Shown piece after piece: positions 18,372 to 63,880 of a DNA stretch of 64,000 nucleotides. The position numbers and the translations under genes were made by a program. The notes below the pieces were generated by a model. That model was not told the origin of the DNA. It was given only the letters and a program-made list of their open reading frames with translations, and did no database searches. The stretch is from assembly GCF_006345805.1 (NCBI RefSeq), contig NC_043000.1:111042001-111106000 (forward strand), in the 5' to 3' direction. The stretch is from Octopus sinensis (taxonomy: Eukaryota). Positions within the stretch are counted from its first letter, which is position 1. Every line of letters begins with the position of its first letter.

Positions 18372-18691
18372 ACAGACTGGAATTGTTAGCCCGTCTCTTG
18401 TAATTTCCATCAATTGTATCTTGTCCTCCCTCTTGTATAGAAGTGTGGCTACAATCCAGCCTACCTCTACTTCTGGGGGGAGGAAGCATTTTAAATTTTA
18501 TTCCGGTACGTCCTACGTCCCAGATATAAAGGTAAAACTAAAATATGTCCACTTTGCAAGTTCGAGTTGAGTACTCCCTTGCACGCTCCGTTGACTCGAA
18601 ACTTGCTTCTATTGTGGCAAATTTACCGCCTCTGATTAGATACCTTTCATAGTCGCACCAAGACGCTTTTCGAAGGTGCTTTCCTCCATGT
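18372..18691 (-). pseudogene. Tx1-family ORF1 remnant (downstream half of interrupted element 0)
   Basis: MEESTFEKRLGATMKG / YLIRGGKFATIEASF / VLPLYLGRR / PPEVEVGWIVATLL aligns with ORF1 at 24982-25479. Confidence 0.7.
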
Positions 18692-18867
18692 TGATTTATT
18701 ATTACCCACAAGGGGCGAACATAGATGGGACAATACAATCTGGGTCAGACAAACGAATGGGTTTTTACAATAAATCGGATTTAAAAATTTTCATGAATTA
18801 CAATAAATGGACAGAAATCGAATGATGGGACAGACCGGAAGACATTACGGGTGGAGTGGGTGCGGGT

Positions 18868-21800
18868 TTAGCTCGGACCCCACGAGCCCCGCCTCCCCAC
18901 TGATACTTTTGGTTGCGCTGGTATTACGTATGTTGTATCTTTCACTCGCAACTTTCGTGCTACATCCTTCCATCGTTCTTCATACACTCTCCTAGTCAGG
19001 CATATTCTCTCCAGCCCTATCTTCCTTTTCAGGTGAAAGATGAAATAATTCATCAAACCAGGGCCGGAGATGAACTTGCCTGACTGTAAACCTTTCATTC
19101 TCGTCTTCCATATCACCTCTTTCGCAATTGCTACTACAACGAGAAAACGAAACTTACCTTCATTCACGAGGAAATCCGGTGGGTCAATTTTTGTAATCGA
19201 CTCAGTCGACAGCTGTACTCTTCGTGTACCTGACAACAGGTGTTCGGCATAAACCCACACCTCAGACACGTCCGACAATGAACAATAGCGTGCGGGACGG
19301 TTTCCCTATCCCGCCCGCATCTTGGACATATCGGACTGTCTTGGCCACCGTGCCTTGCGAGTTTATCCCGAAAGGTAGAGCTCCTCTGTAGCATTGCCAT
19401 GCCAGAGACTTCTGGAAGTTGTCCAGTGTCTCGGCTCGAACGTACGTCGGAACAGACTGGCCAGCTGATTATCGTCGAGACCTAGGGTTTCCCCCAAGGT
19501 ATCTTCACATTCCGCCTCTACCAACCCTCTATAGAGGAATGTGGTGGAACCCCCACCGCAGGCGTTGCCCGAGCGACGGAATAGCAGGAGAGCCTTGCGA
19601 CACTCCGTGTACCAAGTACCACCAAGTTTCGATCTACGATTCAGCCAGGTTTCCCATCCACCGAAACTAGTGAACTTGGGAAACATCAGTTTTGCTAGCG
19701 AAGACCACACCCGTTCACCATCCAGGTAGAGCCACAGATGTCTTAACCTCAGCGCATGTCTGCGCATCATCAGCCAAGGCATCCCTAGCCCACCCTTTAA
19801 CGGTTGTTGACAGCAAGTAGAGCGTTTCACAAGTGGTTTCCCGCCCTTCCACAAGAAGTAGAAGAGCTGTCTTTTCAACTTGATCAACCACGAGTCAGGG
19901 CAAGAGCGACGGAAAGGCGGTAGGTGATAACCGATGCGATAAACCATTGGCCACCTCCGCCCTCCCTTTCAGGGATAGCCACCGCCAAGACCAGGTCTTG
20001 GCTACTGCAGCCACCTTGCTCGTTACCTCGCCCCAATTCTTCTCTATTTGGAGGTCTGGACCGAACCAGACCCCTAGCAGTTTAATCGGACCCTCCGTCC
20101 AACGTCCCACGACGCTGTCAGGAGGCATCGACTTGCCTCTCCAGGTGCCGAGTTGCAAGCCGACTGACTTTTCACGATTAACTTTTGCTCCTGTCACCGT
20201 CTCGTAAACCTCTATGGCCTTGCCTACTTTACATAGGTGGTCCATTTCGGTTACGATGATGGTGATGTCATCCGCGTACGCTGACACTGATTTTCCATTA
20301 CCTGGCTGTCTCGGGATGCCGCTCAGTTTTCGCAGTAATGGCTCAAGAGCCATCACGTACAAAAGCGGGGAGAGCGGACACCCTTGACGAACCGAGCGTT
20401 TGATTTTGAACGGCTTCGACAAGAAGCCGTTCACCCGAACTACCGAGTCGATGTTATCATAAATTTGGATAATCCACCTGAGGAAGCCAAGGCTCAGCCC
20501 GAACTGTGCCAGGGCAGATACCAGGTAACGATGGTCGACCCTATCAAAAGCTTTAGATTGGTCTAAATGGACCAGTGCCCCGCCCTTGCCAGAATCACTA
20601 TTAAACCCCTCTATAGTGTACCGCATTAGATGGAGATTATCCTGAATGGATCTGCCCGGAACGGCACATGTCTGTGCCTCTCCGATCAGACCATCCGCGA
20701 CACGCGCCAATCTTTTCGATAACACTTTGGCCAAAATCTTCAACTCTGTGTTTAGCAGAGTGATGGGCCTGAAATTATCAATGCACTCCCCCTTGCTCGG
20801 GTCCTTTCTGACGAGAGTCACTACTCCCCGGCGCACAGATCTGGGTATAAGCCCGTTCTGCTGCCAGTTCGCATAGACCTCCGCCAGTAGGTGCCCGAAC
20901 AAGTCTGGCATACTCTTATATAACTCATAGGGTAGACCATCCAAACCCGGCGCCTTGCCCGCGCCGCAGTCCGCCATTGCCTCAAACACCTCCCCAGGCG
21001 TGATTGGCCCTTCACAGCCCCTCCGCATCTCGCCCCGATAAGCGCGGCAGACCGTCGAGTAGGTCCGTAAAGGCCCTCCTCCTATCCAGTCCGCCGCACT
21101 CACCGAAAAGCTGAGCGAGCGAAGTGCTCCTGAAAGGCCTCACACATCTCCTCGGGTTCGTTTATCAACTCACCTTGTTGGTTCGTCAAAGATCGAATCG
21201 TGGCATCGTTACCATGCTGAGCTTCCACCACTCGGGCCCATCTCACGGCGTTGATTCCTTCACATCCCACATGACGGATTCTAGCCCTGACAATGCAGCC
21301 CATGTGTTTGGCCTCGAGGTGCTGGTTTAACACCAGTCTCTTGGACGCCACCTGAGCCGCAGAGCCAGTTTTCATGGCTTCCTCTAATTCCTTAACTAGA
21401 GTAGTTTCCCTTCTAGCCTCTCTAGCCACTACTCCTATGCTATATCTAATAGACTCAAACTTGATGGCTCGTTTGAGGGCGTACCACCATTTGTTATTAA
21501 TGATGGTACCAGATAGTGCCCTCTGAATTATATTCCTAATCCGGTCTTTGTACTCCTTAATCGCCAAAGGGACGTATTAAGTTTCCAGTAACCGGATCCT
21601 CTATTTTTAACCTTATCTATGTCAAGCTTACAAGTGACCATTTTATGATCACTGTAGCTGATCGGGTAAAACTGTGGACACTTAGCTATTTTACTGTCTA
21701 CTTTTCTAATTAGTATTCTATCTAAATATGACCTGGAAGATCCGTCGCTGTTTGACCATGTCCACAATGGAGCGTTCGGAAATTCCAGCCTATAAGGATC

Positions 21801-22323
21801 TGCTAGCTCAAAGCGGCTTAGCAGTTCCATGAAGCCACTGTTGCCTTTTCTATCTGGACACGAGCCAACATAATCTACATCCGCTTTGCAAATTGTGTTA
21901 AAGTCTCCTAGCACCACTAATGAATGCGAAGTACCAAGAAAGTTTTCTAGTTCAAAAATAATCACTTTGCCCTGTATGGTTGGGTGCGTAAATGCAAACC
22001 AGTCTGATAACTTTACCATTACTGAACGTCAAATCCATGACGACCAGCCTACCTTCTGGATCTGCAAAAATTAACTTTTTCTCAGAAACCCGGTTTCTTT
22101 TTAATAGGACCAACACCCCACTCCCGCCTGTAGGACTGCCAGGAGAGAAAAAACTCTCGTAGCCGTCAAACAGCGGGAGTAGACCTCTTGGCCCCTCTAA
22201 CCGGGTTCTGTAGCAACAATAACATCTAAATTACGCGACCTGATGTCATGCAGGAAGCGACCTTGCTTCCAGCCTGCTCCCAGGCCGCGCACATTCAAAC
22301 AACCAACATAAATGTAATCCCAT
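18868..22323 (-). pseudogene. LINE ORF2: AP endonuclease-reverse transcriptase-zinc finger (frameshifted)
   Basis: CLNVRGL, LGDFN, SYLDRIL, YSDH (APE); APGLDGLP, FRPITLLN, DQSKAFDRV, RQGCPLSP, YADD (RT); GGLGMP; CPRCG...ETVPH. Confidence 0.92.
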
Positions 22324-22329
22324 TGCTTA

Positions 22330-23692
22330 CCTTATATCAGTGGTTCGGTTTTCTCTTGTTCTTCAAACTCTTTTTCTGGGCCTCGTGGGGAGTCTGACGT
22401 AGGCCCTCGAATATATGTGGAGATGTTACATCAACCTAAGTGGGGCCTACGTCATGGAAGAATTCTGACTTTATCCGCCCGTAATCCCTCCGGTCTATTC
22501 TGTAAATTACAAAGTCATTTTTTTTTCTACTTTCTCTACTTTGGCCATGGCTGCCAACACGTTTCCGAGCCTGCTATTTGATGCTTTTACGGCCATATAT
22601 GCGTTCATTGACTCTTTTTTCTTTTTTAAAATTACTCTGGGAGGTGTGGTTTCCGTTTTTCTTTTTTTTTTTCCGATAATTTTTTCCCACCCCTCCTCAT
22701 TTATCTTTTCCTCGCTCTTTTTTTTTTTCCGCCGCTGGTTCTGCTGTCACCGTCACCTCCACACCTTCAGTCTTCCCTTCTGGGCCGTCTGACGCTGCTT
22801 CTGGTGACACATTGTCTTCTTTTTCTTTTGGCTTAGGTGCTTCCTGCGGTTTGGGTTGGGGTTGGCATTCCGCCTTACATGCCCTTCTTGCCGCAGCCGA
22901 AGCACCTCGGTTTCCTGCCCTCCACGAACACTGTTATTTCTCGTCTTCACTAATCTTTACCGTTTCTGGAATTTCTTCCAGTGTTTGCACCTCCGCCTGA
23001 ATGGCTATCACTTTTTTTGGCCTTTCCAAAAATCCTCTTCTCCACTGTGGCCTGGAGGATGTTTATTTTTTCCTCCAGACCTACCATCACTGCTGCACAC
23101 CAGACATTCAGCATCAGCCTCTGGCGGTATGTTGTTCATTGAAATTTTGACGTCTTTTTCCTTTATACAATGGTAGTAAGACAATGTTTTCCGCTTTGAT
23201 CGGCTCCATCGATAGTTTCTTCGCTACATCCTCCGTAGTAAAACGCACCTCCACTGTGCCGTATCTTTTCCTCTGTTTATATACGTTATTTGTCCAAAAG
23301 GTTTTAGACAAGACTCTATTTTTTTTTCTTCGATTTTTTGGATCATTTTTTCGTTGTGTCGTAAGTTTTATATATATTCTTTTTTTCTCTATATCGTCAT
23401 GTATTTGTATGTTTGTGGCCACAGTCACTTCTGTGCCTTCTTTTTACGCAGTCTGCAAATTTTTTAAAATTGTCTATATTTATTTTTTTGATCTTTTTCC
23501 CAGCCACTTCAGCGAATTTTTTTGCTGGAGTTGATGCTGGTACTGGTTTTTCCATTTCTTGGGCGACGCCGCCTCTTTTTTTTCGGCGACAGCGCCTCTT
23601 TTTTTTGGCGACAACGCCTCTTTTTTACTTGGCGACAACGCCGGGTATTCATCCTCGCTCGTCACGGGCGAATAAGAGATGGGGGACTCCAT
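22330..23692 (-). pseudogene. LINE ORF1 (zinc knuckle), frameshifted
   Basis: YGTVEVRF..., LPLYKGKR, VFVEGRKPRCFGCGKKGH; Lys-rich. Confidence 0.7.
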
Positions 23693-23919
23693 CTTGAACA
23701 AATGGCTTTAACAAGCCTTTGGTAAATCCAATTAATTGTAGTTTTCCCCCACTGAGGGGGGAACACCAACGCGAAGTCTTCGCGCGAAGGCTGACTTCGT
23801 CCGTTAGACAATAATAGACAAAAACAGGTAGACCAACAGTATATAATAACAGAGATAATAGTACGAGAGCAAAAATATATATCAACTTACTAATAACGCA
23901 AAAATGATTTCCTCCATGT

Positions 23920-25834
23920 TGTTTTATTATTACCCACTAGGGGCTACATAGATGGGACAATACAATCGGGAAAATGAATAATGAGTTATGAAGTTTGTAC
24001 AATGTGGTGCAATGCCCACTCGATCCCCGAAATCGAGCGGTTACATTTCGTCATTTATTTTTATTCGTCAACAATATTTTCAAATAAAACATTTTATACA
24101 TTTTCAGCATACATTTCAAAAAGTTTACAAGTTCAACATCTTTTTTTTTTTTTTCCGAATTAAAGTTCTTTTTATCATTTACAAATAAAGTTTTCACAAT
24201 ACTTTTCTTTTATATATACTCCATTATGTCTACCAAATCTGAGTAAATTTCCATCGTTCGAGGCCACCTTGGAAGTCGGCATTTCATATGTTTTAACACG
24301 TTCTCGCCAGCTGCCTCGATGAACGCCTCGGCGTCGTTCTCGTGGACGAGTGCACCTGTTTCTTTCCATTCGGTGCCCATCCTGACCCACGTATATCCGT
24401 TTGTTTCGCTTATTAAATTTTCCATCTCCTCACAGTGCTTGTGATGGATCAACGTTCCATAGTATTTGAATTTTCTATTCGTACCTGCGTTTTCTCTAGT
24501 TTTTCTCTTAGGACTTACTTCCTCTTTTTTCTCCTCCCTCGGTTTCTCTCTTTCTCTCTTTTTGCTTTCTCTTCTTTCTTTTTCCTTCTCTTGTCTTTTT
24601 GGCTCTTTGTCTGCCGTCTCTCTACCCTGTGCCTTAAGTTCCTTTCCTGTTGTTTCTTTTCCTTTTTGCATACCATCTTTTCCTTTCTCTCGGTTCTGTT
24701 CCTTCTCTTGTTCTTTTCCTGCTTTTTCTCTTTCCTTTAATGTACTTTCCTTTTCTTTCTCTTGCTTCTGCCTTGGCTCCTTCTCCTCTACTTCTGCACC
24801 CTGTGAATTTTGCTCCTTTTCTACTATCTTCTTCCCTTTGTTTTCATTTTCCTTCAGTGCGCTGTTACTTCCCTTCTCTTGTTGTTTCTCCGTTATTTCC
24901 TTTTCCTTGTTTTCGCTGTTCTTTCCTTCGTGTTCGTTTTCCTTCTCTCCCCTTTGTGTCTCTTTTTGCTCCGCTGTGAATTCATACAGCGGACATTCCT
25001 TTTTTTTTGTGCCCTCTTGAACCGCACAGGTAGCAATTCGGTTTTCTGCCTTCCACTATTACACTAATTGTTTTTTCGTTTTCTATTTCTATTTGGAAGG
25101 GAAATCTTTCGATGTCTTCAATTTTGGCCATCAGCCACAACTCGACTCCGAATCCCTTCCAATTTACAACGTTCGTCTCCTTAATTGACCCTATTTCTAC
25201 TTCCTCTTTTGCTGCTCCAATAATGGCTGTTACCAGCATTTCTGTTTTAATATTTGGGGGCACCTTTGGGACTCTTACCCGTACCCCTCGTCTTCCTTTA
25301 TACGTCGGCCACATGGTGAAATTTTCCGCTTTCAGGACAGTGGAAGCCAATGAGGCCGCCACTTCCTTTGTTGCGCATCTCACCTCCACCGTACCATATT
25401 TCTTTCCTCTGTCCACAAAAGTCGCTTTTTTCATGATGTCCCCCAGACATTTCTCTATTTCTTCAATCGTCACTCTCACCAGTTTTCTCGTGTTTCTATC
25501 TTGCGTTCTATACGTTATCGTCTTGTTATTTTTTCTTCTATTGTTTCCACAGGCGGGACCAGCTTCACGCTGTCACCCTCCCTTTTGACGAACTTCTCGT
25601 ATTCCTTCAATTGTTCTTTTCTAAAGAACACTTCTTTTATTCTAAGTGACTCGTCACTTTTTGTTGTGGCGACCCCCGCGTAAGTCTCCATGACTTGAGG
25701 GTCGACACACCTTCTATAAAAGGTTCAAACACGCAGCGGCAAACGCCTCGCGCGATTCAATTTTTGACAATTTTTTAACAGTCTTTTTTCCAAAGTTTCA
25801 CATGCAAAAATAACTCACAACACACTTGGGTAAA
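23920..25834 (-). mobile_element. ORF1-only non-autonomous Tx1-related element (element 2, HAL1-like)
   Basis: 5' UTR, ORF1 and about 290-bp 3' UTR ending in the same tail as element 1. No ORF2. Bounded by target copies at 23908-23919 and 25835-25846. Confidence 0.8.
24210..25691 (-). pseudogene. ORF1-like protein: N-terminal domain, CCHC zinc knuckle, long K/E-rich region, C-terminal domain (two frameshifts in A-runs)
   Basis: METYAGVA...EIEKCLGDIMKK...YGTVEVRC...VEGRKPNCYLCGSRGHKKK/ECP...DLVDIMEYI*. Confidence 0.75.
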
Positions 25835-25960
25835 TTTCCCCCATGTGTTCGAATCTTTTTTCTCTACATTGTATACTTTATAGACAATAGTCTTTTCTTT
25901 AATTTAATTTTTTATTATCTATCTGGACTATTCCATTTCTGCACGCTAATTTTATTTTTA
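25835..25960 (-). pseudogene. Upstream half of interrupted ORF1 (element 0)
   Basis: KEKTIVYKVYNVEKK/RFEHMGE joins the segment starting at 18691 and aligns to KTITYRTQDRNTRKLVRV of element 2. Confidence 0.6.
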
Positions 25961-26651
25961 ATTTATTCCCATTCATGTGAAACCACTTATTCAAGTTCAA
26001 GTCATTGATGCAATTTTATACCAATTGCTATTTTTACTTTTGTTATGTTACGATTATATTATACTTTAGTTTGATTTTAATTATTACTTACTACATATAA
26101 TTCAATTGTTATTATTATTTTTATTGTTAAAGTGAAAGTATCTGACATCAAATAGAGAAGCGTTTTTGTTTCACTTTTAACACGTAATACTGAAATAGTG
26201 GAGAAGATATGATATTGCTATGGGCTCGCTCTAGGCAAGAAGTTGAACATTTATTTTGCCCATGAAACTACATGGACCCTAAGTAAGGCAAGTGTAAAAT
26301 TTGAATGAAATTGGTTGTGTAGTTCTCAAGTTTTAGGGAATCGTAGTGGAGAAGATATGATATTGCTGTGGGCTCGCCCTAGGCAAAAAGTTAAAAAATG
26401 TTTTTGCTGATGACACTCCCCGGACCCTAAGTAAGGCATGTGTAAAATTTGAATGAAATTAGTTGTGTAGTTCTCAAGTTTTAGGGAAACACGCAGACAG
26501 ACAGACAGACATACACACATTCTCAGTTTTATATATATAAAGATGTGTTTGTTTGGGGATGTGGGAGAAAGACTTGTCCAAGATGCCATGCAGTGGATTA
26601 AACCCAGAAACATGTGGTTATGCAGCCAACCTCTTACCACGCAGCTACAAC

Positions 26652-26707
<56 letters not shown>

Positions 26708-29700
26708 TGTGTGTGTGCATGCATATGCGCGCGTGCTTGTATGTATGTATGTATGTGTGTATCCTTCCTTTTTTGAGCGTTCAACTCATGACGGAATAAG
26801 GTTGTCATCATGGTATACTCTGCATCTCGGACTTCTAAATCACGTTGTTGCTGTCCGTCTCCAGATCCGACAACAACCGTTTTCTTTCAGATCAAATCCT
26901 GGACTGCTTTGAAAAGGGATTTGAACTTAGAGTACAGAGAGCCATATCACGGGTGCCAGAAACCATTTTAGCCTACTGTATAACAACTTTCATTTGGCTT
27001 AGAGTGTAGCCAGGTCTTACAACTTGCAATCATCACGAGGGGGAAGTCGTCAGACTGAAGCTAACTTCCGGTTATTAGTTGCAAAATCCCCGAAAAGCTT
27101 TGTAGATGCAATCCTTGCTAGTTATCTGCAGGAATTTGCTCCGCTCTTTGATTATGAGCAATGTTACCAGCTCATTGCGTATATAAAGGTTCTTCTTATT
27201 GTTCTTCGCTACGAAAGGTCGAGCTTCACACAATTTCCGCTCAGGAGACATTCTCTTTTTAAAATCATAAATATTTTCCGTTTTTTTTTGTTTTAATTAA
27301 GAGGATAGATTACATATGACTGTGTGACTGAACACATTTATTTTACGTGCTTATGAATGTGTATGTGAAACTGTCAGTATGTAGGCATAACGTATATATA
27401 CATATATGTGGTTATGCAGCCAACCTCTTACCACGCAGCTACAACATATATATGTTTTTTAACTTTTTGCCTAGGGCGAGCCCACAGCAATATCATATCT
27501 TCTCCACTACGATTCCCTAAAACTTGAGAACTACACAACCAATTTCATTCAAATATATATTTGGATAGACATAGAGAGATAGATAGATAGATAGATATAG
27601 ATATATATATATACACACGCATACATATATATATACACACACATTCATATATATATATATATACATAAATACATACACACATACATACATATATACATAC
27701 ACATACATACATACATACATACATACATGCATACATACATACATACATACATACATACATACATACATACACACATACATACACACATACATACACACAT
27801 ACATACACGTGTGTATTTACAGTGTGAGAAGGCAGCTGAACTACTAAATCGTGAATTCTGTTATCCAAACTCTGTTTATATTAGTGAGAAAAATCTCAGA
27901 AATCCCTAAACAATCTTAGGGAACAATTGAAGGAATTAAATGAGGAAGTTTGCATTGCAATAAGATTGCAGCTCCCAATTGGCTGAGATCGATGGTGAGA
28001 ATGGAAACCTGATTTATTCGACACAGCAATTATGGTCGAGAGAAAACATACAACACTTGATATTTCGTTGTGACATCATTGATTTTTGTTTTAGAAAATC
28101 TTTTATTAGGATCAAATAAAAGTTCAAAGCCCATTAAAAATCATTAGCTCATTTGTGAAGTCGTTATTCGACAATATTTAATACTTTCATTGACATAACC
28201 ATTCATGTCTGTTTGCTACGTTACGTTTAGAAATCTTTGTGGAAAACAAACGAAACACGTTTAGAAACTTTTATTTCTCTTTCTTTTTTGTTTATATATA
28301 TATATTTCATTTATTAAAAACAAGACACACGTTTTGGAACATTTTATGTCAACAGATTACGAGCGAAGTTGTTTTTGTCTCTGCAAATCGCAGTCCGTAT
28401 CATAAAGGTCGGTCCAGTTTATTGAGAGAACCCGGACGATGTAAGACGTTAATGTGTTTATTAGAGTTGATAACAAGTCCAGTATACCTGGTGAACTGTA
28501 TAAACGATATAATTAGCAAGCAATAATGTTTTAGCTTCGTTTCTTTAACGATTGATGCTATTTCTATCAAGATTCATTTTTTGTCATTCATTTTATGATT
28601 GCTTGATTACGTCGGGCAGAAAAAAAAACATTCTGTAAAACCTCCATAAAAACTTTGAGAAAATATTTGATATAGGTTAATCTGTGTTTTGATAACTGAA
28701 ACATGATCGATATTGATAATTAATGAGACCAAGAGGACAGCACCTGTTATGTACTGTGGTTCATATTGTTCCTTACTTCTACCCGACCCCGCACGAAGGA
28801 GCACGAAGGAGCGATTGTATAACACACACCACTGAAAAAGGTGTTTGGAATTAAACAGCTTTCATTATAAACAGCATAATTGAAATATTCAAAAGAGGAC
28901 CAATAATTCTTCCCGAATCACACGTACATAAGGCCGGTCTTCTGGATTCTGTGGCGTGTATACTCTACCCACCCCGCCGCCATCTACTGGACGGGACGTC
29001 AGTTCATCGCTGAGTTATTCCTTGTAGCCAGTAACATGAAACGAAGCGTTTTGTTCAAGAATACGACGCATCGAAACCACAATCTTACGACCATGAATGC
29101 AAAACCCTAACCCGAACCACAAAGCAATGCGCTTTCATGATTGGAATACTAGTCTTTTACAGGTAAATCTAAATTTACAATGCTTCCATTTCTGTCTCGC
29201 TCGCCTTCCTATTCACTCAATAAACTTTTTATATCTTCTCTACATTTCTCTTCGTTAAAATACATAAGCAAGAAAACACGCATACAGCCAAACCACTCAG
29301 GTCCCTAACATAAAACCAAATACACCGCATACACAACATACTACAACAAAAGTGTTGAGATTGGAAAAAATGTTAACAAAATGGAAAAACATTACAAAGG
29401 TAAACTTACCAGCAGGGGAGTTTCCCTCCAATAAAATGTGTGTCCTGATAGACATAGCAAAATTTTAAAAACTAAAAAAAAACTTTCGGATCTGATATAG
29501 ACCCCATAGGGACGAAGGTGGAATTTGATACCCTGTCTTCTGTCATTGAACGCAAGGAAGGGGAAACACTCACAAAGTATGTAACTGTTGCAATGAACTT
29601 GTAAGAAAAATCAATTGTATTAAATGTCACAACTCGAGTGCAGGGCTCGAGTAGCCATTGCACATTATTTACATTTGACGGATATTTGTACTCGTCTTGT

Positions 29701-34076: not shown

Positions 34077-34471
34077 TCTTTATATATAAAAGTGAGGTTG
34101 TGTGAGTGTCTGTCTCCTACGATTTAGATTCCTAAATACTCCCACATTTTGCGGTGCAGTTTAACCAAAACCGGGTATCTTATAGTCGTGATTCATATCG
34201 AGCCCTTCTGGGTATTAGCGCGCGTCTACGATGAGTCTACGATTTAAAAAAAAATTACCATCAATTTTTCCCATTTTTAATGCATTTTTGGCATATATAA
34301 GGGAAGTAACTCTCTAAAAATTTATTATTAAATCTCAGAACATAAAAAGCTACAGTAACACCCCGCTTTGTGGTTAGCCATATTGAGATGGCTTTTATAC
34401 TTTACATCTCTAAAAATGCTTATATAGTTATTTCCCTTACAAACCCGAGCAACGCCGGGCGATACTGCTAG
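34077..34471 (+). mobile_element. Non-autonomous Helitron
   Basis: A|TCTTTATATATAAAAG 5' end, subterminal CCCG..CGGG hairpin, CTAG|T 3' end, no TSD. Confidence 0.8.
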
Positions 34472-44563: not shown

Positions 44564-44800
44564 AAGGCGGCGAGCTGGTAGAAACGTTAGCACACCGGGC
44601 GAAATGCTCAGCGGTATTTCGTCTGCCGTTACGTTTTGAGTTCAAATTCCGCCGAGGTCGACTTTGCCTTTCATCCTTTCGGGGTCGATAAATTAAGTAC
44701 CAGTTACACACTGGGGTCGATGTAATCGACTTAATCCCTTTGTCTGTCCTTGTTTGCCCCCTCTATGTTTAGCCCCTTGTGGGCAGTAAAGAAATAAGAA
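44564..44800 (+). mobile_element. SINE family B with Tx1-like tail A, TSD present
   Basis: Full length; flanked by AAGAATATTGG(C/T)CAAAAAT at about 44540 and 44796. Confidence 0.9.
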
Positions 44801-62643: not shown

Positions 62644-62690
<47 letters not shown>

Positions 62691-62694
62691 GACT

Positions 62695-63880
62695 CTCAAA
62701 ACGTGCTAGGATGGTGATGAGACGAGGAAAGCTTGCCAGGACAGAAAGCATATTGTTGCCAAATAGTGGAATGATGAAGGCAATTCAACCTCAATCCAGC
62801 TATAGATACTTGGGAATGTTCGAGGCAGATGGAATCAAACACAATGACATGAAAGAAACGACAAAGCTGAATACCAGAAACATAATATCGACAATAAACT
62901 CGCGCACAGTTGCAGTAGTTCGGTTTGGTGCTGGAATCCTGGAGTGGACAGTGAAGGAGCTAAAGGAAATGGACAGGAAGTCAAGAAAGCTCTTAACGAT
63001 GCATGGAGCCCATCATCCACGTGTAGATACTGATCGCCATTACATGAAGAGAGAAAATGGAGGAATGGGACTGATAAATGTGGAAGACTGCGTGCGTATC
63101 GAACTCGAAAGCTTAATGAGATACCTAGCACAAAGTAAGGAAACCTTGCTAGCGACAGCTGAGAAAGAAAGAGTATTGAGAGCAGAGGAAAAGAGAAGAC
63201 AAAGGAAGAAGTACAAAAAGGACATGAAGAAGAATTGAGGGACTACACAATCAATTCCATGTAGCCACAACAGAAATTGCTGGAAAAAATAGGTAGCATT
63301 GGCTGATGAAAGGAACCCTTAAAAATGACCGAGAGATTATGGAATGTATGAACCTATTTGGTATTGCATCGAATGTTGAGCGATTGCTTGGAAAAAGTAT
63401 GGCGAAGTGGAGGACGGAACTGACAGCATAGGAAAGAAGTTTAGGGACAATAGAGATCAGGAGAGGCATCTTCGAAAGGGACTGCCTGTCCCCACAGATC
63501 TTTGTACCGTGCATGATACCACTAACACTGATTCTGAGGAAAGCAAAGGCTGGGTATTTATTCAAAAGTCGCCAACAAAAAGTCAACCATTTGTTATTCA
63601 TGGATGACCTCAAACTTTATGGTAAAGATGAATCCCAAGTCAGTTCCCTCGGTGATACGGTGTATACTTTCAGTGCTGATATCAGAATGGAGTTTGGACA
63701 GAGAAAGTGTGGTGTGTTAGTCTTGAAGAGAGGCAAAATCAAATGTATGGATATCGACGCGGTAGGTTATGAAGCAAATAGAAGAAACGGGCTATAAGTA
63801 CTTCAGGATGTTGGAAATGGATAAATTGATGGAGAAAGAAATGACAGAACAATTTAATGTGGAGTACTTGCGCAGACTAA
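62695..63880 (+). pseudogene. Two overlapping R4/Dong-type RT fragments after (TAA)n
   Basis: YRYLG, LNTRNIISTINS, DRKSRKLLTMHGAHHPRVDTDR, GGMGLI; then VNHLLFMDDLKLYG, MEFGQRKC. Confidence 0.8.

Follow-up and report, generated by a model that had tools for sequence, protein, structure and literature searches.

An ORF1-only element and a Tx1-like LINE stacked at one target site in octopus DNA

Derivatives of long interspersed nuclear elements (LINEs) that keep open reading frame 1 (ORF1) and are non-autonomous have been described from three clades, with HeT-A from Jockey, HAL1 from L1 and Ag-Sponge from CR1, and HAL1 is believed to depend on an autonomous partner (PMC5786205; PMC5753468). Among the telomeric families of Drosophila, about 40% are given as ORF1-only (PMC13534243). 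Here an element of this kind, element 2, is reported from 64 kb of Octopus sinensis DNA (contig NC_043000.1, the whole stretch being called the window), where it lies on the minus strand, head to tail with and upstream of a full-length LINE, element 1. Both elements interrupt the same short sequence, and element 2 ends in the 3' tail of element 1. With a Tx1-like example from a mollusc, the independent origins of such derivatives would number four. No Tx1-derived or octopus ORF1-only LINE was found in the literature searched, outside of which lay Repbase and Dfam as well as subscription journals and the supplements of preprints, and an entry for element 2 in Repbase or Dfam is possible.

Element 2 works like HAL1, HeT-A and Ag-Sponge and is not a HAL1 in the strict sense. 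With mammalian HAL1 it shares the possession of ORF1 only, non-autonomy and a protein of its own; it differs in its octopus host, its Tx1-like candidate partner and an ORF1 with a CCHC knuckle, and also in a specific 3' tail and a target site shared with the partner, where mammalian L1 uses poly(A) at its 3' end (PMC3472496). The label HAL1-like, used in a preliminary description of this DNA, holds for the mode of action; as to membership it fails, the host not being a mammal and all 11 close relatives of the ORF1 being labelled Octopus vulgaris. With regard to an L1-clade origin, the ORF1 profile matches zinc knuckles, and the partner reverse transcriptase (RT) falls into the L1/Tx1 group by its database matches. 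HeT-A and other ORF1-only telomeric Jockey elements likewise stand head to tail with an autonomous partner at a common target, and in Drosophila lineages of this type, as reported in PMC13534243, ORF2 was lost repeatedly and ORF1-only lineages spawned new ones; element 2, on the other hand, is not a Jockey element, shows no sign of a telomeric position and has target-site duplications at its junctions. Ag-Sponge of mosquito is again an ORF1-present non-autonomous LINE (PMC5786205), of the CR1 clade in contrast to element 2. The arrangement at the locus has its parallel in SINEU-3 and Tx1-Mar of crocodilians and in Tx1L within Tx1D of Xenopus, where Tx1 moves a non-autonomous partner into a target inside another transposon, and tandem SINEU-3 (and Tx1-Mar) copies with a duplication between them have been interpreted as successive insertions by the Tx1 machinery (PMC4494074). 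SINEU is non-coding, whereas element 2 is protein-coding, and the targets described there are DNA transposons, long terminal repeat elements, microsatellites and RNA genes, as against a decayed LINE ORF1 here.

Two insertions at one site

The 12-mer ACATGG(A/G)GGAAA, with at most one mismatch allowed, occurs in the window at three of 127,976 positions (25846, 23919 and 18691), and all three sites are junctions: before element 2, between the elements and after element 1. It is a target-site duplication in three copies, and both elements inserted at the same site. Element 2 (25834-23920) is exactly the interval separating two of these copies, so that the 1.9-kb unit delimited in the preliminary description is borne out to the nucleotide. 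The sequence outside the outer copies was compared with an ORF1 profile made from 26 relatives in the databases. The 5' flank matches profile positions 120-135, weakly if taken alone (independent E-value, iE, 1.6), and the 3' flank follows colinearly with positions 138-238. Ungapped scoring placed the 5' flank second among 127,900 scoring windows for positions 119-134 and the 3' flank second among 127,888 for positions 138-155, the remaining top-three rows in both rankings being the ORF1s of elements 2 and 1; one relative, P0107, resembles both outer flanks. The flanks are colinear halves of one decayed third-family ORF1, which is therefore interrupted by both elements. The triple 12-mer and this colinear empty site establish that element 2 was inserted by retrotransposition. 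That the same bases were hit twice is hard to explain without a target preference shared by the two elements. As to the order of events, the identity of the middle and 3' copies of the 12-mer slightly favours element 2 as the first to arrive; the better-kept frame of element 2 favours its later arrival.

The frame of the element 2 ORF1 was followed by frameshift-aware alignment to the homologues P0012, P0001 and P0009. It runs from the ATG at 25691 to the TAA at 24212-24210 (494 codons counting the stop) and contains two frameshifts, in an A6 run (25534-25529) and an A9 run (25008-25000), which are likely sequencing errors. There is no internal stop, while shuffles of matched length and composition had at least 12 in 500 of 500 trials. 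The CX2CX4HX4C knuckle is intact only when read through the second frameshift; in 9 of the 11 Octopus homologues this region lies in a single frame, one of the nine having a Cys replaced. The linker that follows is rich in lysine and glutamate, with 78 K+E in its 158 residues. A profile of 63 ORF2-like proteins, run against 3128 stop-to-stop segments of the window, recovered the ORF2 of element 1 end to end and found no match at E ≤ 10 within element 2. This one copy, then, codes for an ORF1 protein (ORF1p) and is without ORF2.

The LINE 3' end has been kept: the last ≈ 52 nt of element 2 match element 1 in 48 of 53 columns, a score reached in none of 2000 shuffles, and outside this tail the 3' untranslated regions (UTRs) of the two elements are unrelated. 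Their 5' UTRs are dissimilar as well, 607 of 2000 shuffles reaching the alignment score. Knuckle, K/E-rich tract, lack of ORF2, position of both frameshifts in A-runs and an end match to element 1 (put at about 45 nt) had all been read from the letters in the preliminary description, and all of them stand.

A dispersed SINE-like (short interspersed nuclear element) repeat of ≈ 235 bp, with four copies in the window, ends in the tail of elements 1 and 2 (score against element 1 59, reached in none of 2000 shuffles); it is presumably an octopus tRNA-derived SINE. Of three copies examined, two are flanked by duplications of their own, and these lie at unrelated sites. Since SINE-like copies at other sites carry the tail, it marks a group of LINEs and not one donor, and tail sharing alone does not confer the target. 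The tail suggests that a Tx1-like LINE is the partner of this abundant repeat; a partner LINE for octopus SINEs is not named in the accessible parts of PMC4758252, PMC4824008, PMC3531059, PMC3747384 and PMC10294476.

Element 1 has a Tx1-type layout, with ORF1 followed by an ORF2 that encodes an apurinic endonuclease-type (APE) domain, RT and a zinc finger (Pfam Exo_endo_phos 4e-07, RVT_1 3.6e-32, zf-RVT 7.4e-05) and aligns colinearly over 1105 codons. Among the 120 RT matches listed, one is named Transposon TX1 149 kDa protein (38%), and the best PDB match is L1 ORF2p, followed by R2. From sequence comparison the element is called Tx1-like, and its family is a candidate ORF2 donor. Its single-base frameshifts number at least 22, of which 12 fall in the ORF1 core and 10 in ORF2, and only 6 are close to runs of five or more. 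Together with at most one stop in the 1105 aligned ORF2 codons, this looks more like assembly error than decay. The features of the locus are compiled in Table 1.

Table 1. Coordinates of the two elements, their insertion site and related features in the window
Feature	Position	Strand	Remark
Element 2	23920..25834	minus	ORF1-only, 1915 nt, bounded by target-site duplications
Element 2, 5' UTR	25692..25834	minus	143 nt, unrelated to that of element 1
Element 2, ORF1	24210..25691	minus	493 codons, two A-run frameshifts, no in-frame stop
ORF1 core	24990..25533	minus	RNA-binding-type region closing with CX2CX4HX4C knuckle
K/E-rich linker	24507..24980	minus	low complexity, 158 aa
C-terminal domain	24213..24470	minus	predicted beta-alpha-beta-beta-alpha-beta (ferredoxin-like) plus helix
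Element 2, 3' UTR	23920..24209	minus	290 nt, no ORF2 remnant
3' UTR hairpin motif	24007..24048	minus	also at 29622-29663; absent from element 1
3' tail	23920..23970	minus	common to element 1 and, more loosely, SINE-like repeats
Element 1	18692..23907	minus	full-length Tx1-like LINE, 5216 nt; ORF1 and ORF2 (APE endonuclease, RT, zinc finger)
Target-site duplication, 5' copy	25835..25846	minus	one mismatch
Target-site duplication, middle copy	23908..23919	minus	between elements 2 and 1
Target-site duplication, 3' copy	18680..18691	minus	
Interrupted third-family ORF1, 5' half	25847..25903	minus	decayed; profile positions 119-135
Interrupted third-family ORF1, 3' half	18393..18679	minus	profile positions 138-238; begins inside 3' duplication
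Second ORF1 C-terminal end	29343..29663	plus	diverged family, then shared hairpin; lacks 5' part and terminal tail
SINE-like copy	53870-53790	minus	
SINE-like copy	44715-44800	plus	
SINE-like copy	10030-9948	minus	
SINE-like copy	9845-9763	minus	

Several candidate explanations of the target were tried and rejected. The 12-mer is not a conserved feature of ORF1 families: the target peptide is present at the site in none of the 66 relatives covering it, which lowers the reading that the elements target ORF1 as such. Nor do target or UTRs correspond to a known RNA, Rfam giving no match at gathering level in the window and, between 17500 and 30500, only microsatellite-driven or sub-threshold matches; no tRNA gene was found in the window. 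As a separate observation, the whole cluster lies between a Helitron-like 5' end at 26544 (minus) and a Helitron-like hairpin-CTAG 3' end at 18231-18201 (minus), both on its own strand, and a compact unit at 34077-34470 is bounded by similar ends. A Helitron might have carried the target ORF1 fragment as cargo, by which the target would have become multi-copy; the 3' end at 18231-18201 is palindromic and may also be a separate mini-element.

The ORF1 lineage and a second ORF1-to-UTR junction

With the ORF1 core as query, one longer protein, P0001, was obtained among 1342 candidates, and a search with P0001 matched 11 of 7496. The closest protein relatives all carry the label O. vulgaris, and the 11 matches, all annotated as uncharacterized or as unnamed gene models, are spread over at least 8 contigs. 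They fall into two subfamilies, P0009 being identical to element 2 at 227 of 244 positions and P0001 at 234 of 375; P0001-P0004 are 94-97% identical to one another, and the C-termini of P0001-P0005 end at the same residue as the ORF1 of element 2. The frame is open across the subfamilies, with the core (104/142 identical) better kept than the C-terminal domain (34/77), and these open frames show selection on ORF1. A wider search returned 299 ORF1 relatives at E ≤ 0.001, 150 of them listed. The ORF1 cores of elements 1 and 2 are identical at 56 of 160 positions (35%). A quick tree of 75 rows was calculated from those of 158 relatives that were long enough (72) and three rows from the window, with X at the breaks; it groups element 2 with P0001 (support 100), and this group is nested in a set of 13 rows (99) and a larger one of 38 (96), element 1 being outside both. 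The origin of element 2 as a deletion product of the element 1 family is rejected on ORF1 divergence, tree placement and the unrelated UTRs, in agreement with the preliminary description, which had judged its ORF1 too diverged for a simple recent deletion.

For the core, atlas clusters of the ZCCHC3-RBD/RRM plus CCHC type serve as leads, and in both Pfam and PDB the ORF1 profile finds zinc knuckles. The C-terminal domain had been called distinct, which is too strong: it is probably homologous to that of other ORF1s in the lineage, diverged and not unique. Run against 25 proteins, the C-terminal profile of the element 2 family matches the C-terminus of P0155 at E 0.0022. When profiles of the C-termini are aligned with each other, the register agrees and the match is weak, at E 0.16, a score that 1 among 60 shuffles of the columns also reaches; with profiles from whole proteins the match loses both its register and its significance (E 0.39). 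AlphaFold models of both C-terminal types have the same order of strands and helices (predicted local distance difference test, pLDDT, 66 and 80), and their matches, at Z 5-7, are for the most part to the same ferredoxin-like domains; the best VIA matches reach Z 7.2 (root-mean-square deviation, rmsd, 2.9, 69 aligned residues) and 5.9 (rmsd 3.2, 74 aligned). The structure prediction proposed earlier for this domain has thus yielded a ferredoxin-like fold and no specific family, with no Pfam match, no usable atlas match and none in Foldseek at E ≤ 0.001. Such a modelled match is to a common arrangement only and names no function.

A second junction of ORF1 with a UTR was recognized at 29.3-29.7 kb. 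When the 3128 segments were ranked with a C-terminal-domain profile from eight proteins outside the element 2 family, 29476-29562 came first (iE 0.0017) and 29343-29453 second (iE 0.0074), ahead of the ORF1 end of element 1 (22519-22442, iE 0.046). The stop at 29602-29604 is directly followed by the 42-nt hairpin motif found in the 3' UTR of element 2, a match reached in none of 2000 shuffles and, among 2522 background windows, rivalled in score by SINE tails only. The hairpin is absent from the 3' UTR of element 1, where 939 of 2000 shuffles reach the score, and no ORF2-profile match follows the 29.5-kb junction. The window contains, in sum, two ORF1-to-UTR junctions and one ORF1-to-ORF2 junction. 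With its 5' part and terminal tail missing, the 29.5-kb junction is supporting and not decisive. The sequence past 29665 (to 29760, plus) resembles another repeat, possibly Penelope-like, which may have replaced the tail; it has no Rfam ribozyme match.

Two side observations concern the gene models. P0005 and P0008, on different contigs, start with the same 29-residue leader, which implies that some repeat recurs upstream of copies of this ORF1 family. The leader has no match in the window, and its interpretation as a Tx1 ORF2 C-terminus was discarded, as it did not match a profile of 63 ORF2 C-termini (159 test peptides), whereas the C-terminus of element 1 itself, the positive control, matched at 8.6e-14. 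The unnamed models P0049 and P0137 (two of the 156 that matched) contain two separate ORF1 cores each and no ORF2 sequence, as would be expected from a stack of ORF1 elements. A search for gene models that read through into a UTR, taken as a stand-in for other junctions, produced one marginal match among 158 queries and none to the UTR of element 2.

How element 2 may move

At a probability of roughly 0.75, element 2 is considered a member of a non-autonomous, ORF1-coding family whose RNA is reverse-transcribed in trans by a Tx1-like ORF2p. The preliminary description had proposed just such an independent coding element that borrows a Tx1-type ORF2 and its target preference, and the proposal is supported by the triple duplication in a reconstructable empty site, a multi-copy ORF1 family with two subfamilies, a place in the tree away from element 1, and the second ORF1-to-UTR junction. 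Element 2 would be transcribed from its own 5' end or promoter and make its own ORF1p, which would coat its own RNA and could co-assemble with the ORF1p of the partner. The tail of ≈ 52 nt may act as a handle for the partner ORF2p, whose APE endonuclease would cut the preferred site, here ACATGG(A/G)GGAAA, and target-primed reverse transcription would insert element 2 with a 12-bp duplication. The duplication recreates the site, such that a second element could enter one of the copies, and the order site, element 2, site, element 1, site would result.

Several points weigh against this reading. ORF2 is documented as absent from one DNA copy, the relatives being known as gene models, and its lack throughout the genome is no more than likely; none of the 158 ORF1 relatives contains ORF2 sequence, yet this is uninformative, as gene models of the element 1 type are also without it. 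Selection on ORF1 could predate the loss of ORF2. The target specificity rests on a single locus with two insertions into the same 12-mer, and Kojima's criterion for a target preference, as set out in PMC4494074, requires flanks from many copies. Nor is the donor identified by the tail, which four SINE-like copies carry as well, none of them at the 12-mer. The Tx1 placement of element 1 comes from one named match and the domain layout, and the region around it is so rich in indels that the assembly quality is uncertain. Finally, the 29.5-kb fragment has neither 5' part nor terminal tail, and its C-terminal domain comes from another family.

The alternative that survives best, and is nonetheless unlikely, is a one-off or rare internal deletion of an autonomous Tx1-like family which combined this ORF1 with ORF2 and this 3' UTR and used its own ORF2p, the present copy having lost ORF2 either ahead of its insertion or in the course of it. 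A multi-copy, young protein family (94-97% among P0001-P0004) is what an active autonomous family would produce, and what follows ORF1 is invisible in gene models; moreover, L1-Tx1 families are numerous in O. vulgaris, for which a supplement table of the repeat annotation counts 80; in the accessible text of that annotation neither ORF nor autonomous occurs as a word (PMC13282606). Such a deletion should be weighed against the absence of any ORF2 remnant on both sides of the supposed breakpoint, against the lack of the hairpin in the element 1 3' UTR, and against the second junction of an ORF1 end with the hairpin, in a different family within the same 64 kb, which makes a single accident less likely.

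Very improbable is an assembly artefact, whether ORF2 went missing or two repeats were falsely joined where polishing was poor. The frameshifts of element 1, with so few stops, may reflect consensus error rather than neutral decay, and exact local duplications lie close by (26299-26398/27554-27455); the three duplication copies at exact junctions with a colinear empty site, the mere two indels in 1.48 kb of element 2 and the reappearance of its UTR hairpin behind another ORF1 end speak against it. Hardly to be expected at all is the arrival of both elements in one event, by a template switch from element 1 RNA with 5' target sequence or as a read-through tandem from elsewhere, so that element 2 need not be mobile alone: the head-to-tail order on the same strand and the identical middle and 3' duplication copies fit it, but the middle copy still requires the same target sequence and an element 2 RNA with its own ends, the relatives are spread over many contigs, and the history of the locus would be altered more than the nature of element 2.

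If element 2 belongs to a family mobilized in trans, it would allow tail recognition, target choice and the role of a separate ORF1p to be tested jointly in one system, which bears on why an own ORF1p is kept when a partner provides one. With ORF1ps only 35% identical, cis-packaging and hetero-assembly become distinguishable by experiment. RT-based annotation overlooks elements of this kind, which have no RT, and they are wrongly labelled as host genes. A wider picture may be offered as a doubtful speculation: an old octopus radiation of ORF1-only Tx1 parasites, marked by the hairpin and sharing their tail with LINEs and a SINE, might have outlived several partner families, and LINE and passenger might home to a 12-bp site in the ORF1 of a third and related family, so that related retrotransposons would stack into and disable each other.

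Other repeats in the window

Long inverted repeats of 97-98% identity, foldback- or MITE-like (miniature inverted-repeat transposable element), are found at 13085-13709/15012-14380, which contains tandem units of 143-158 bp, and at 12154-12358/12703-12499. Besides the exact duplication near element 2 mentioned above, exact or near-exact local duplications occur at 26612-26661/27406-27455 and 35930-36760/36723-37569, possibly recent rearrangements or assembly seams. Pieces of another RT-coding element lie at 62690-63800, with a weak ORF2-profile match at 63483-63677 (iE 0.0056).
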